Below, piece by piece: positions 10,986-45,930 of a stretch of 64,000 nucleotides of DNA (the first letter of the stretch is position 1; the number at the start of each line of letters is the position of its first letter). This stretch comes from Eledone cirrhosa (lineage: Eukaryota). The notes below the pieces were generated by a model, which was not told the origin of the DNA, searched no databases, and was given only the letters and a program-made list of their open reading frames with translations. The DNA lies in NCBI GenBank assembly GCA_964016885.1, contig OZ024743.1, positions 279,124,001 through 279,188,000 on the forward strand, written 5' to 3'. A program made the translations under genes and the position numbers.

Positions 10986-13295
10986 TATATATACATATCT
11001 TCCTCGTGCATGTATGTATATATATATATATATATATATATATATATATATATATATATATATATATATATATGTGTGTATATATATATATATATATATA
11101 TATGTGTGTATATATATATATATATGTGTGTGTTTGTGCGTGTGTATAAATAAATATATATATATATATATATATGTGTGTGTGTGTGTGTCTATGTGTG
11201 TGTGCGTGCATGTGTGTATGAATGTGTGTGGTGTGTTTGTGTGTCTGTGGGAATATGTCTGTTGTGGTCTTATACTTGTGTATATATGATAGATGCCAAC
11301 AAGATGACTTGCCGCAAATATCGGGACTTCCAATTTATGAAGTCTATGCTTTTTCTGCTGTTGTATCTTTTTTTTATGTTTGTTTTTCTTTTCGCTGTTG
11401 TTGTTTGGAAGAATATTTTTTGTTGCATCTGAAATTTGCAGAAATAGAAAGGAAGGAAATAGCAGCATAAATAATGAAAAATAGAAGACAAGAAGTAATA
11501 TGTACAAAGAGAAGTGAATGGAGAAGACTGATCGTGAAAGAGAATGACATATACATAGAGAGCAGGAGATACGAGAAATAGAGGTGAAGAGAGATATCAG
11601 CAGAGAGAGCAAGAAAGATTGAGAAAGGGTGAGAGAAAACTGTAAGAAAATAGTAACAATAACAATTGAAAACTAACAAAAACAACCAAAATGTATAATT
11701 TCCAATTATATGTACATATAGCCACACACATGCATTTCCATACACATATATATACCTTATAAACCCATATATATACATTCATATATATATATATATGAAG
11801 CGAATATAATCCAAAAATATATAAGCAGAATCTTTCTAGTAGAAATATTCCTTGATAACTAAGAGAATTCTAGATCCCTTTGTCTTCTTTATTATGCAAT
11901 GTTATCATTAATATACCCATTCCTTACTCTCAAAGTCTCACCCCTTCGTTTCCCCCCTCTTCTGCTTATTCTGTCCTTGCTTTCCTTCTTTCATATATCT
12001 TCTCACTATGTGTCCCCCTCTCAATTTCTCTCGAAGTATCTCTCTCTCTTTTTCTTCCTTACTCACTTCCAACCTCATTGTCATACTCTCTCCAGCCCAC
12101 CTTCTGAGACTTCATATTTTTCTTATGTTGTGGAGTATCATGTTAGAATGCATTATTATTAAGATAAAAAAAAACTGCCAGTCATCTGTTTCTTTACTGT
12201 TTATATATATATATATATATATATATATATATATATATATACATATATATATATATATATATACTTATAAACGTTATATATATATATATATATGTGCATA
12301 TATATATATATATATTTATTTATTCATATATATATATATATATATATATATGCACATATGCACCTATATTTATATTAAATATATACAGAGGAAAAGAACG
12401 TATATATATACATATGTTTGTGTGTGTGTGTTTGTGTATATATATATATATATCATAGTTGTGTGTAAGAGTATATGAACGTATGCGTAAACCACATGAT
12501 GTATGCATTCGAATTGTTTTGTAGTATTAAAAAAAAAAAAAATCTTTTTTATTACAATGTTTATATTTTTGGAGCCTTTGTATCAAATAAGCACCAACCA
12601 TTATTATTATTAACTTTTTTATTATTATCATTATTAAAAACTCTGTTGCTGTTATTGTTATGAATTTTTTACTTTTCCTATGTTTGGTCTATTACACACA
12701 GATATATACTCCGCTATCACCAACTGTTTCCCTTGCAACGTATGTATATTATTATCCTGTAATCTTTAGAGGTATTTTTTTGCCCCCAAAACTATTTTTT
12801 CATAGTTTTTCCCCAACGAAAAATTGCTTTATTTTCTTTGGTTGTTGTCCCAACAACTTGTATCACAGTATTTTATTTCGGGTATTTATTCTCCCAATAG
12901 AATCTAGATAAATATTCTTTTTTATTTCAATCTCTGTCAATTGATATATTTGTGTCTTCCCAACCCCTCTCTCGTTCTTTCGCTATCTCACTATTTCTCA
13001 CCCTGCATTTATATACACACATATATATATATATATATATATATATATATATATATATATATATATATACAATTAAGTCAAAGATGTACATCCATATATG
13101 TATACTGAAATACTAGTATGTATATGAATACACACACGTATACATATGTAGATGTACCAAGTTTTTTTTTCACTGATCACTTTACTGTGAGTGGCCAGCT
13201 ATTCTGTATGTAAACACACAGACAAACCGGTTTTTAGAGTCATACTGGTTTTTGAGGAAACACCTTTCCTCTATTCTCCAGAAAGCCAGACAAGG

Positions 13296-13340
13296 AATAT
13301 TGAACTAGTTTCGTTGTTGTTACAACTCATCAGCAATATT
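13296..13340 (-). ncRNA. Minimal type-I hammerhead ribozyme, array copy 1
   Basis: Minus strand reads AATATTG-CTGATGA-GTTGT(AACA)ACAAC-GAAA-CTAG-TT-CAATATT: 7-bp stem I, intact core, 5-bp stem II, palindromic ACTAGT stem III, GUU site. Confidence 0.9.
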
Positions 13341-13765
13341 TACCTATCTTCCGGCCTCTCTAGAGAATCGTAAAAGCACATATCGCTATATGCTTTTTCT
13401 ATGAAAATTAGTAGTGGGCAGACCAACTTGCATAGAGTGTGAGTAAGTACCGGTTCAACGGAGACGATAAAAACAAATAACGAAACGAAATTAAATTTCG
13501 TTTCGTTTGTAACTCACTTTTGTATGACTGACGCTCAAACAATTAAGTCAAAGATGTACATCCATATATGTATACTGAAATACTAGTATGTATATGAATA
13601 CACACACGTATACATATGTAGATGTACCAAGTTTTTTTTTCACTGATCACTTTACTGTGAGTGGCCAGCTATTCTGTATGTAAACACACAGACAAACCGG
13701 TTTTTAGAGTCATACTGGTTTTTGAGGAAACACCTTTCCTCTATTCTCCAGAAAGCCAGACAAGG

Positions 13766-13810
13766 AATATTGAACTAGTTTCGTTGTTGTTACAACTCAT
13801 CAGCAATATT
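13766..13810 (-). ncRNA. Minimal type-I hammerhead ribozyme, array copy 2
   Basis: Identical to 13296-13340. Confidence 0.9.
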
Positions 13811-14235
13811 TACCTATCTTCCGGCCTCTCTAGAGAATCGTAAAAGCACATATCGCTATATGCTTTTTCTATGAAAATTAGTAGTGGGCAGACCAACTTG
13901 CATAGAGTGTGAGTAAGTACCGGTTCAACGGAGACGATAAAAACAAATAACGAAACGAAATTAAATTTCGTTTCGTTTGTAACTCACTTTTGTATGACTG
14001 ACGCTCAAACAATTAAGTCAAAGATGTACATCCATATATGTATACTGAAATACTAGTATGTATATGAATACACACACGTATACATATGTAGATGTACCAA
14101 GTTTTTTTTTCACTGATCACTTTACTGTGAGTGGCCAGCTATTCTGTATGTAAACACACAGACAAACCGGTTTTTAGAGTCATACTGGTTTTTGAGGAAA
14201 CACCTTTCCTCTATTCTCCAGAAAGCCAGACAAGG

Positions 14236-14280
14236 AATATTGAACTAGTTTCGTTGTTGTTACAACTCATCAGCAATATT
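14236..14280 (-). ncRNA. Minimal type-I hammerhead ribozyme, array copy 3
   Basis: Identical to 13296-13340. Confidence 0.9.
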
Positions 14281-14706
14281 TACCTATCTTCCGGCCTCTC
14301 TAGAGAATCGTAAAAGCACATATCGCTATATGCTTTTTCTATGAAAATTAGTAGTGGGCAGACCAACTTGCATAGAGTGTGAGTAAGTACCGGTTCAACG
14401 GAGACGATAAAAACAAATAACGAAACGAAATTAAATTTCGTTTCGTTTGTAACTCACTTTTGTATGACTGACGCTCAAACAATTAAGTCAAAGATGTACA
14501 TCCATATATGTATACTGAAATACTAGTATGTATATGAATACACACACGTATACATATGTAGATGTACCAAGTTTTTTTTTTCACTGATCACTTTACTGTG
14601 AGTGGCCAGCTATTCTGTATGTAAACACACAGACAAACCGGTTTTTAGAGTCATACTGGTTTTTGAGGAAACACCTTTCCTCTATTCTCCAGAAAGCCAG
14701 ACAAGG

Positions 14707-43863: not shown

Positions 43864-44491
43864 GCAGTGAGACCATAATGGTTTCTTATATAGGCACAAG
43901 GCCGGCAATTTTGAGGGAAGGGAAAGTCGATTAAATCGACCTCAGTACGTTACTGGTTTATATTTTATCGCCCCCCCCCCCGCCCGTAAGGATGAAAGGC
44001 AAAGTTAACCTCGGGGAGATTTGAAATGAGATCATAAAGGGCCATAACTCTATGCTGCAAAGCATGGTGTCCGACTCTCTACCGATACTACCAATCCACC
44101 GCCCTGCAGTGAGGCCATAATAATTACTTTTGACACGAGGGCAGCAATTACTCCAGTGTATTACTGGTACTTTATTTTATCGACCTCGTAAGGATGAAAG
44201 GCAAAATTAACCCGGCTGGATTTGAACTCAGAATGGAAAGGACTGTAACTCTATGCGTCAAAGCATGGCGTCCGCAGTGTGACCATAATAATAGTTACTT
44301 ATATAGGCACAAGGCCAGTAATTTTGGGGGAGGGGAAAGTCGATTAAATCGACCCAGTGCGTCACTGGTACTTTATTTTATCGACTCCATAAGGATGAAA
44401 GGCAAAGTTAACCTCGGCGGGATTTGAGCTCAGATCATAAAGAGCCGTAACTCTATGCGTCAAAGCATGGCGTCCGCAGTGAGAACATAAT
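43864..44491 (-). mobile_element. Three SINE copies in tandem, punctuated by a 16-bp motif
   Basis: GCAGTGAGACCATAAT-like motif at 43864, 44106, 44274 and 44476; each interval holds AGGATGAAAGGCAAA...ATTTGA. Confidence 0.88.
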
Positions 44492-44948
44492 CACGACTAA
44501 GTTGTTTATATCCTCGAAATCGAAGGGAGAATCCATATTATCTATGTTTGTATGTATATATATAAATATTTCAAACATATGTGGTTTTTCAACCCTTGTA
44601 ATTTTAGACACACGGTTTACTGTGTTTCTTACTATATATTATATATATATATATATATATATATATATATATATATAAATATATATATATATTTTCAATT
44701 TGCAAAGCCCTTTAAACTGTATGTTATTACTCTGAGGACTATACCTTGTCGAGTGCTTGGTTGCACTGGTGAAGGCACTCGTTGGCTTAGCTGCCACTCG
44801 AACTTCGAATTTGCTGTACTTTTATATATATATATATATATATATATATATATATATATATATATATATATATATATATATATATATATATATAAATAAT
44901 TAAGCCAAATATGTCAAATTTGGCTTCGTTTATTATAAATTAAAAATT

Positions 44949-45003
44949 ACTGCTATATATATTTCGGTGACAGCCATCATTGGCTGTGACCTCATCAGGC
45001 AGT
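44949..45003 (-). ncRNA. Minimal type-I hammerhead
   Basis: Minus strand reads ACTGC-CTGATGA-GGTCACAGCCA(ATGA)TGGCTGTCACC-GAAA-TATATA-TA-GCAGT. Confidence 0.88.
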
Positions 45004-45100
45004 CCGAATTGGTATGGAAAAGACAGGTACACATGTTGTTGAAGTGTATTTTACTCCGTCAATACATACATGCGTACCTGTCTTTTCCACACCAATTCGG

Positions 45101-45155
45101 AATGCCTGAAGAGGTCACAGCCAATGATGGCTGTCACCGAAATATATATCGTCGT
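45101..45155 (+). ncRNA. Hammerhead with decayed stem I
   Basis: AATGC-CTGAAGA-GGTCACAGCCA(ATGA)TGGCTGTCACC-GAAA-TATATA-TC-GTCGT. Confidence 0.65.
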
Positions 45156-45874
45156 AATTTTTAATTTATAATAAACCAAGCCTAATTTTACATATTTGAC
45201 TTAATTATTTTACATTACTTCGCAGTAAACAAACCAACCTTCGTACTTCGTCGAGTGCTCCAATCTGCATACTTGGGTGTCGGTAAACAACCAACATATA
45301 CTCAATATATAATATATACAGTATATATATTGTTCAAGGAGACAACAAACAGAGGTATAAAAATGTTATTACTTTTACGCTTTATATTGGAAAGAGGAAA
45401 GAAAGTTCGACGTGTCTGGCCCTTCTTCAAGAGTACAAAATAGAAACAGGATTACAATGGAGAAACAGAAAAAGGTCCAATAAACAAAACGAAAATGAAG
45501 CGGGAAAACAAGAGAACCATAAGGTTGTCTTGGTAACAAGTAAGAACGCAAAGTGGAGTGTGTGTGTAATCGTATCGTTATATATGTGAGTGTAAGTGTA
45601 AGTTTAAATGTGTGTGATGTTAAAGGTAAAATGTGTAAAGTAACAAAGATAGTGATGTATGTGCATATCCATGTGTTAGAGGTAGTGGACATGTATGTGT
45701 GAGTGAATGTAAGTTTCAATGTGTGTACTGTTTATGTACGTTGAAATAATTTTGTGTGCGTGTATAAAGTTTCGCTAGTGTAGCGTATGACCGTTAGAAG
45801 AGTGAATTAGTATGTGTGAGTATATATATAATCAACACCATAAACACAGTGCTAGTATATCTAAGAACTGACTA

Positions 45875-45930
45875 ACTGCCTGATGAGGTCATAGCCACTC
45901 AATGGCTATCATCGAAATATATATAGCAGT
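45875..45930 (+). ncRNA. Minimal type-I hammerhead, covarying paralog of 44949-45003
   Basis: ACTGC-CTGATGA-GGTCATAGCCA(CTCAA)TGGCTATCATC-GAAA-TATATA-TA-GCAGT, followed by AATAAA. Confidence 0.85.

Follow-up and report, generated by a model that had tools for sequence, protein, structure and literature searches.

Endonuclease-containing (EN+) Penelope-like elements (PLEs) of the Neptune and Hydra clades are reported to insert into (TA)n targets with target site duplications (TSDs) of 8-10 bp, often together with an inverted, 5'-truncated copy and a tail at one end only, and to carry a hammerhead ribozyme (HHR) in their terminal repeat (Arkhipova et al. 2013, PMC3846280; Craig et al. 2021, PMC8557442; here and below, the PMC papers are cited for the sections available to us). 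Metazoan retrozymes without long terminal repeats (LTRs) are built from non-coding tandem units with one type I HHR and a compact fold, for which circular RNA (circRNA) templates and mobilisation by Penelopes have been proposed (Cervera & de la Pena 2020, PMC7229834; PMC7761336). Li et al. (2026, 10.64898/2026.07.22.740005) link retrozymes to pseudo-LTRs (pLTRs) by sequence and ascribe the tandems to local amplification. In Schistosoma, dual HHRs on opposite strands, 100-700 bp apart, were attributed to truncated PLEs (Cervera & de la Pena 2014, PMC4209133), and in vitro work on PAc revealed cleavage of both strands of AT-rich DNA, a predicted dimer and two adjacent internal start sites of the reverse transcriptase (RT) that bound the tail (Frangieh et al. 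2024, PMC11167929). Here we compare with these systems the HHR elements of a 64-kb stretch of the Eledone cirrhosa genome (contig OZ024743.1, G000:C4:279124001-279188000; hereafter the window). Judging from the arrangement of their ends, we consider it likely that these loci are two-armed insertions with one short (S) and one long (L) outer end, made by a Penelope-type RT/GIY-YIG enzyme priming from both ends of a staggered (TA)n cut.

The host genome is 3.0 Gb in size and rich in AT and microsatellites. The window alone holds 126 runs of (TA)5 or more, and any proximity to (TA)n therefore requires a control. The initial annotation had proposed that one architecture recurs at seven places across unrelated HHR elements: inverted arms with their 3' ends outward, usually beside (TA)n. 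A non-random orientation and a proximity to (TA)n above what microsatellite density predicts are to be expected in that case. Self-BLAST and self-alignment of the window recover inverted arms at 7 of 7 places (Table 1), a minus arm being followed by a plus arm and the HHR sense facing outward; the weakest fits are the right ends of D and F and the inverted left arm of E. The places were thus correct, and only the right arms of B, C, D and G proved longer, by a tail (to ~16178, 24414, ~25001 and ~45310, respectively). A, C and D may rightly be called unrelated. By contrast, E and F are 73-80% alike, G shares a 58-nt HHR with the element at 45880 (86% alike), and B and the HHR at 46435 are 76% alike. 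Orientation and proximity were compared with background in a ribozyme-blind sample of 740 kb, which was drawn from six contigs at round coordinates and from beside the window and scanned for the HHR motif. It gave 51 matches against 0 in a 3-mer shuffle, which collapse to 25 loci, or roughly one locus per 30 kb. Homologous HHR pairs on opposite strands were divergent in 7 of 7 cases (p=0.008), and (TA)5 was present within 350 nt downstream of all 25 loci, compared with 25% of random positions, a few of these runs lying inside the unit. Both expectations are therefore borne out, and the two-armed divergent architecture is real and genome-wide. The same sample (L301-L360 and the neighbours of the window) contains several additional HHR families whose distances to (TA)n come in pairs, for example 48/138 and 43/138 nt, which suggests the S/L rule again.

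In every family we found two fixed, family-specific 3' end sites, the short S and the long L, which lie 29-158 nt apart: about 72 nt in A, 70 in C, 61 in D, 29 in E and F, 95-100 in G, 75-95 in B46 (the family of HHR core 46435) and 158 in P (the family of the remnant at 27985-29520). We inspected ~245 loci, window elements excluded; 114 were two-armed with both ends readable, the others being single-armed or extending beyond the fetched DNA. According to a hand count, which includes four short arms of family A (11-16 nt) identified by visual inspection, 96 of the 114 combine S with L (A 36, C 14, D 6, E 12, F 8, G 8, B46 7, P 5), 2 are L+L, none is S+S and 16 have one end elsewhere. The excess of S+L over same-type ends is highly significant (p=3e-26), and none of the 114 has convergent arms. 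In the window, 6 of 7 elements are S+L, E being the exception. The cleanest test of this pairing is the sample of 15 family A loci, out of ~65, that were chosen by their S end: L is opposite in 9 and S in 0, while 2 are single-armed and 4 unreadable. Choosing 13 of ~2,600 loci by L gave 6 S partners (two on tiny arms), 1 other end, 1 unreadable and 5 single or unclear cases.

Over seven families, 238 of 261 3' ends lie at S or L, a fraction that is inflated because the queries themselves contained those ends. A (TA)4 run lies within 10 nt of 183 of these 238 ends, compared with 5.5% in the background and 2 of 39 ends of short interspersed elements (SINEs). Target duplications of ~10-12 nt, read by eye where the run is not perfect, are present in five family A loci (L143, L146, L369, L032, L049), above the >4 bp used to define retrozymes. 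Since L143 and L146 lie outside pure (TA)n, the (TA) run is the target and not sequence added during insertion.

Which template did the two arms copy? We compared single nucleotide polymorphisms (SNPs) in 342 units of family A from 42 loci: 30 SNPs are fixed in all covering units, 53 are private to one unit and 7 are partly shared. In 14 two-armed loci a haplotype of 1-6 SNPs distinguishes the locus from the window unit, always in both arms and with no discordant case. Non-fixed variants cross between arms once, against ~13 expected if the arms had copied a heterogeneous multimer or each other, an expectation that presumes that private variants pre-existed in the donors or arose in copying and that would be weakened by later mutation or assembly error. 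The 30 fixed SNPs need a single-unit bottleneck, and locus-specific SNPs common to all units of both arms favour a single-unit, probably circular, template. Because family A has about 2,700 L-end matches in the genome and diverged subfamilies, two RNAs recruited independently would be expected to give mixed haplotypes in many cases, except where a single donor prevails at any given time. (The pattern counts of 2697 and 121 are not an S:L ratio, the S pattern being specific to a young subfamily.) The inner junctions between the arms are random, with 0-4 nt of microhomology or short inserts. Those of L146, L143 and L375 contain extra pieces of 8-47 nt from elsewhere in the unit, which suggests template jumps during joining.

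We propose the following course of events. The endonuclease would nick the two strands of (TA)n at positions about 10 nt from each other, whereupon one DNA 3' end would prime at S and the other at L; such a division of sites between two DNA ends implies that the complex is asymmetric, for example a dimer on one RNA. The two cDNAs would extend independently over the same sequence, for which strand displacement or two identical templates would be needed, and end-joining would connect them in the middle. Taken jointly, these four steps appear very likely to us. In the tandem families (A, C, E/F), the template would have gone through a single-unit stage, most likely an HHR-cut and ligated monomer circle that is reverse-transcribed in rolling-circle fashion in trans. 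A single-unit, most likely circular, template for these families is probable, at a level of confidence clearly below that of the preceding steps. The widest form of the proposal, on which our judgement is evenly poised, is that a PLE complex starts two RTs at two fixed sites of one RNA, that on a monomer circle this would build a head-to-head array of up to ~20 units in one step, and that the arrays would record viroid-like circles retrotransposed in trans.

Several points weigh against this proposal. A second end lies at neither site in the 16 loci mentioned above, two loci are L+L (L210, L053) and many are single-armed, while the S and L windows are data-derived, those of B46 (288-315) and F being broad. 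Of the 13 readable 3' ends of an HHR-less 860-nt repeat, 11 also abut (TA)n, so that (TA)n adjacency alone is not diagnostic. No Penelope partner sharing its 3' end with A, C or E/F was found among the 3' untranslated regions (UTRs) in ~2 Mb, which is <0.1% of the genome; apparent 3' UTR matches of these families to Penelopes were rejected as neighbouring insertions. The partly shared variants (L035, L036, L042, L046, L145, L374) point to some multimeric templates or to later local duplication. For PAc in vitro, the strands showed no difference in start site and HHR cleavage was not needed for insertion (PMC11167929).

The main rival is a double-ended Penelope reaction on a linear multimeric read-through transcript, with no circle involved, which we regard as rather unlikely. 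The autonomous elements D and P and the never-tandem G require no circle, L036 has a non-fixed variant in both arms, L035 and L374 have repeated variants, and the dispensability of HHR cleavage for PAc fits as well; the fixed SNPs and the near absence of cross-arm variants, however, are difficult to reconcile with such a transcript. A homogeneous multimer, copied RNA-to-RNA from a circle, would be indistinguishable from a circle template. Alternatively, a short two-armed insertion could have come first and the arrays could have grown later by unequal crossover, following the satellite model of 10.64898/2026.07.22.740005. This growth would also keep a locus SNP in all units, and it fits the period-2 pattern of L035 and the adjacent shared variant of L145, but 53 private variants against 7 partly shared ones form a star-like pattern, and near-identical arrays of up to 14 units occur on many chromosomes. 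We thus give this model a small chance, and local expansion would explain a minority of the variants. For rotifer Penelopes it was proposed that the inverted arm arises by self-priming (snap-back), either of the first cDNA or of an antisense template (PMC3846280). As a general route this is largely refuted here and has the lowest standing of the enzymatic alternatives, although it may explain a minority of loci: near-palindromic junctions, allowing 12 nt, make up 5 of the 32 in family A (p=0.026). The junction offsets are otherwise uniform (mean 105 of 235, Kolmogorov-Smirnov p=0.48), and either arm may be the longer one (10 versus 20 of 30). In the non-tandem families (L192, L215, L095, L104, L076, and D and G of the window), the S arm may extend further 5' than the L arm and yet lacks the tail, so that neither arm was copied from the other.

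A non-Penelope machinery, either twin priming by a long interspersed element (LINE) or a rolling-circle DNA transposase, might insert the non-coding families, and (TA)n adjacency would then be a general trait of this genome. Presumably RTE-like LINEs are indeed present in the window, the CTAG-ended 860-nt repeat likewise abuts (TA)n, and the ~2 Mb searched yielded no partner of A, C or E/F. Nevertheless, we find this very improbable: the arms have no poly(A) or repeat tail, their overlap and two fixed ends are unlike LINE twin priming, and bona fide Penelopes of this genome carry the identical signature. In L1 twin priming, two target ends prime on one RNA and the 3' ends point outward, as they do here, but the arms do not overlap and the second site is variable, whereas here the arms overlap and both sites are fixed. 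L104, with a tail-only arm and an S arm, has an L1-like geometry. Collision-type twin priming as the rule was rejected, the inner ends not lying at S or L. Finally, palindromes beside microsatellites are hard to assemble and the L036 array ends in an N gap, but an assembly or read fold-back artefact deserves next to no credence: the arms of old elements are 86-98% identical, the outer ends occupy fixed and asymmetric positions, target duplications occur, and some single arms are interrupted by SINEs.

How, then, does double-ended priming at S and L relate to the described systems? D and P are elements of the EN+ PLE kind and share with it the inverted truncated copy, the tail at one end, the (TA)n target, the TSD and the HHR in the terminal repeat. 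The reported tails are 30-40 nt, compared with 29-158 nt here; beyond those reports, the near-strict S+L pairing was counted in eight families and reaches non-coding multi-unit arrays, and self-priming fails as a general route (PMC8557442, PMC3846280). The in vitro PAc study covers neither circular nor trans templates in its tests, and the sections available report no asymmetry between strand and site (PMC11167929). The minimal HHR pairs of Schistosoma resemble ours in lying on opposite strands and in the U3-A8 variant, while direction, ends and mechanism are analysed only here as far as the available part of PMC4209133 goes. A, C, E and F are like non-LTR retrozymes in having an HHR per unit and tandem, non-coding units, but the 1.28-kb unit of C exceeds the range of 51-972 bp given in 10.64898/2026.07.22.740005. 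We found no mention of inverted two-armed insertions, S/L ends or (TA)n targets in the main text of that paper or in the available sections of PMC7229834. A literature search, with supplements (including figure S9 of PMC7229834) and subscription papers, which may bear on novelty, outside its scope, retrieved no earlier description of retrozyme insertions with two arms ending at S and L, or of a haplotype common to both arms. The parts of the system are thus of known kinds; the counted S/L asymmetry and its extension to rolling-circle-like arrays appear to be new.

Our findings bear on two questions that the available sections of the literature call open: how the tandem and inverted structures and the tail of Penelopes form (PMC8557442), and what mobilises animal retrozymes (PMC7229834, PMC7761336). 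The young, high-copy family A displays the structure of the product, with two start sites (one for each DNA end), a stagger of ~10 nt, overlapping cDNAs that extend independently of each other and a template of a single unit; each of these features is a direct prediction for the existing in vitro Penelope assay. A further implication is that long inverted repeats, which are potential sources of double-stranded RNA, are being scattered through a TA-rich 3-Gb genome.

Table 1. Hammerhead ribozyme elements of the window (positions in the 64-kb stretch)
Feature	Position	Strand	Description
Family A, left arm	13069..15281	-	470-nt unit repeated 4.7 times, with five HHRs; S as outer end (unit position 234 after cut); (TA)n outside
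Family A, right arm	15281..15761	+	1.02 units, HHR core 15425; outer end L (position 306, ~72-nt hairpin tail); (TA)n outside
Element B, fold-back	15982..16178		S end left, L end right, decayed HHRs (16044 minus, ~16057 plus)
Family C, left arm	22870..24070	-	Non-coding, circularly permuted unit (~1.28 kb), of which ~1.2 kb is present; HHR core 22989; (TA)n at the S end
Family C, right arm	24069..24414	+	70-nt tail, L end at (TA)n; arm split by a ~200-nt SINE-like insert (about 24090-24289)
Element D, left arm	24604..24885	-	Belongs to the 3' UTR of a Neptune-like, autonomous Penelope; HHR core 24795; (TA)n at the S end
Element D, right arm	24883..25001	+	~61-nt tail (L end)
Hydra-type Penelope (P)	27985..29520	+	5'-truncated, frameshifted GIY-YIG remnant; U3-A8 HHR ~29268, S 29361, L end 29519; single-armed
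Family E	40427..41270		2.6 units of 320 nt on plus, U3-A8 HHR, S end at (TA)n; 30-nt inverted left arm, end neither S nor L
Family F, fold-back, relative of E	42191..42921		Left end L, right end S; HHR cores 42396 minus, 42755 plus
Family G, fold-back	44899..45310		Left S end at (TA)n, right arm through ~100-nt tail to L; cores 44998 minus, 45106 plus
Single HHR, relative of G	45830..45975	+	Core 45880; 92% like sequence ~350 nt behind Hydra-type GIY-YIG in L189
B46 HHR	46400..46562	+	Core 46435; related to element B; (TA)n at the L end

The initial annotation had further suggested that several non-autonomous ribozyme RNAs share one Penelope-type insertion machinery that prefers (TA)n, and had noted a Penelope GIY-YIG remnant with its own HHR at 27985-29520. 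The remnant is indeed that of a Penelope, of Hydra type and with a U3-A8 HHR. Penelope-type insertion into (TA)n gains support, the non-coding A, C, E and F sharing their end signature with the two protein-coding Penelope families of the window, D and P. Non-autonomy would apply to A, C, E and F but not to all elements: D is the 3' end of an autonomous family and B is probably a Hydra-type stub. That one common machinery serves all elements does not follow, because the pattern is found in Neptune-like as well as in Hydra-type Penelopes, and either kind has ends of its own. Penelope open reading frames (ORFs) sharing the 3' ends, which the annotation had suggested looking for, exist for D and P, but among the 3' UTRs surveyed none matched A, C or E/F.

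All HHRs discussed here are of type I. Their cores were found by motif scan, and Rfam supports only two of the families, A and F. For each unit of A, C, E and F the assignment is based on the motif scan, the shuffle control and conserved or covarying cores, with Rfam below its gathering score; the minus cores of A lie at 13333-15214 (five) and its plus core at 15425 (HH9, E=6e-6, below the gathering score), and F reaches E=0.002 with HH9, again below that score. Rfam found no HHR in C, D or G at E<=2, and its miRNA matches are microsatellite or fold-back artefacts. E (TTGATAA) and the P remnant (TTGAGAA, ~29268) have a U3-A8 core instead of C3-G8, a covariant described in PMC4209133. As this core is kept in 9 of 10 anchored E copies and in most of 20 P loci, it does not represent decay.

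The units of all four families are circularly permuted and measure 470 nt in A (up to 14 per arm), 320 nt in E, ~316 nt in F (mostly 1-2 units) and ~1.28 kb in C. Their longest ORF starting with ATG encodes 31-66 residues, and tblastn of PLE proteins found no match inside the units. An LTR structure is not apparent in the self-alignments of A, C, E and F, to which no dedicated search for LTRs, primer binding sites or polypurine tracts was added. The family A unit has a predicted compact fold whose ends are closed by the HHR (z=-9.2). An array related to E/F, 34 kb to the right of the window (L152/L157, about G000:C4:279222200-279229000), is two-armed with ~20 and 1-2 units of a 310-nt HHR repeat and has S-like and L-like ends. 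The SINE-like repeat that interrupts C is found at (ATT)n just behind the family C HHR in four loci (window 24090-24289, L163, L179, L188).

The genomic relatives of D are 97-99% alike and lie behind an open frame with RT, linker and GIY-YIG that has Neptune-type motifs. In L196 this frame is open over 461 residues, with YVDD and VVY-YIGET (Pfam RVT_1 E=0.005, below the cut-off), and Atlas neighbours with HTH_animal, RVT_1 and GIY-YIG provide a lead. The order of RT and C-terminal GIY-YIG is that of Neptune; for the CX2-5CxxC linker and CCHH motifs of that clade, CX4CxxC and two core cysteines were seen by eye in comparison with PMC8557442. From these frames, D is the 3' end of an autonomous Neptune-like RT and GIY-YIG Penelope, not a retrozyme. 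In L159 (2628-7437 and downstream), a long RT-endonuclease match of the D Penelope (93%) lies between divergent HHRs 5.4 kb apart; similar divergent pairs in L196/L197 and L198/L201 may hold near-full-length D elements.

The open frames of P in L063, L066 and L071 contain RWK, DKT, a CxCX5C linker, no CCHH, and CxxC and CxH around E and N. Read against section 11 of PMC8557442, these motifs are those of the Hydra clade, as are the HHR and the insertion at (TA)n; the Pfam scan gave no match for the P frames. (TA)4 is present within 25 nt of 25 of 31 P ends. Between the L ends of P (e.g. window 29520) and (TA)n there is usually (CT)n or some short CT-rich sequence, whereas its S ends abut (TA)n directly. 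B resembles, at 83-85%, the 3' UTR that directly follows a Hydra-type GIY-YIG in one locus (L227) and is probably a truncated stub of such a Penelope. G showed no tandem copies in 27 loci, and a fixed 5' end was rejected for it, some copies extending upstream. D, B and G therefore lack the non-coding tandem unit of a non-LTR retrozyme. Diverged fragments of Penelope endonucleases, either Neptune-like, Hydra-type or of a third type, number more than 20 in the 740-kb sample.

Among the other repeats of the window, two inverted copies (16225-17082 and 19001-19863) represent the ~860-nt high-copy repeat (3071 candidates), which has its CTAG end at (TA)n and which we take to be Helitron-like. In the second copy the 5' part is replaced by an inverted copy of 15982-16166 (at 19863-20047), so that element B has been duplicated; 15982-20047 as one large two-armed element was accordingly rejected in favour of two copies of the 860-nt repeat, which is unrelated, and a duplicated flank. 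A fold-back at 25352-25772 has 124-nt arms (97%) and its right end at (TA)n, with a negative HHR scan, and a short perfect inverted repeat surrounds (TA)n at 5149-5226. Fragments of LINE-type RT frames lie at 56372-57541, 6504-6938, 35769-36227 and 46781-47509, the first of which is presumably RTE-like. A 1-kb (TATATACATA)n-type tract occupies 20741-21753 and a 700-nt (GAA)n tract 33445-34149.

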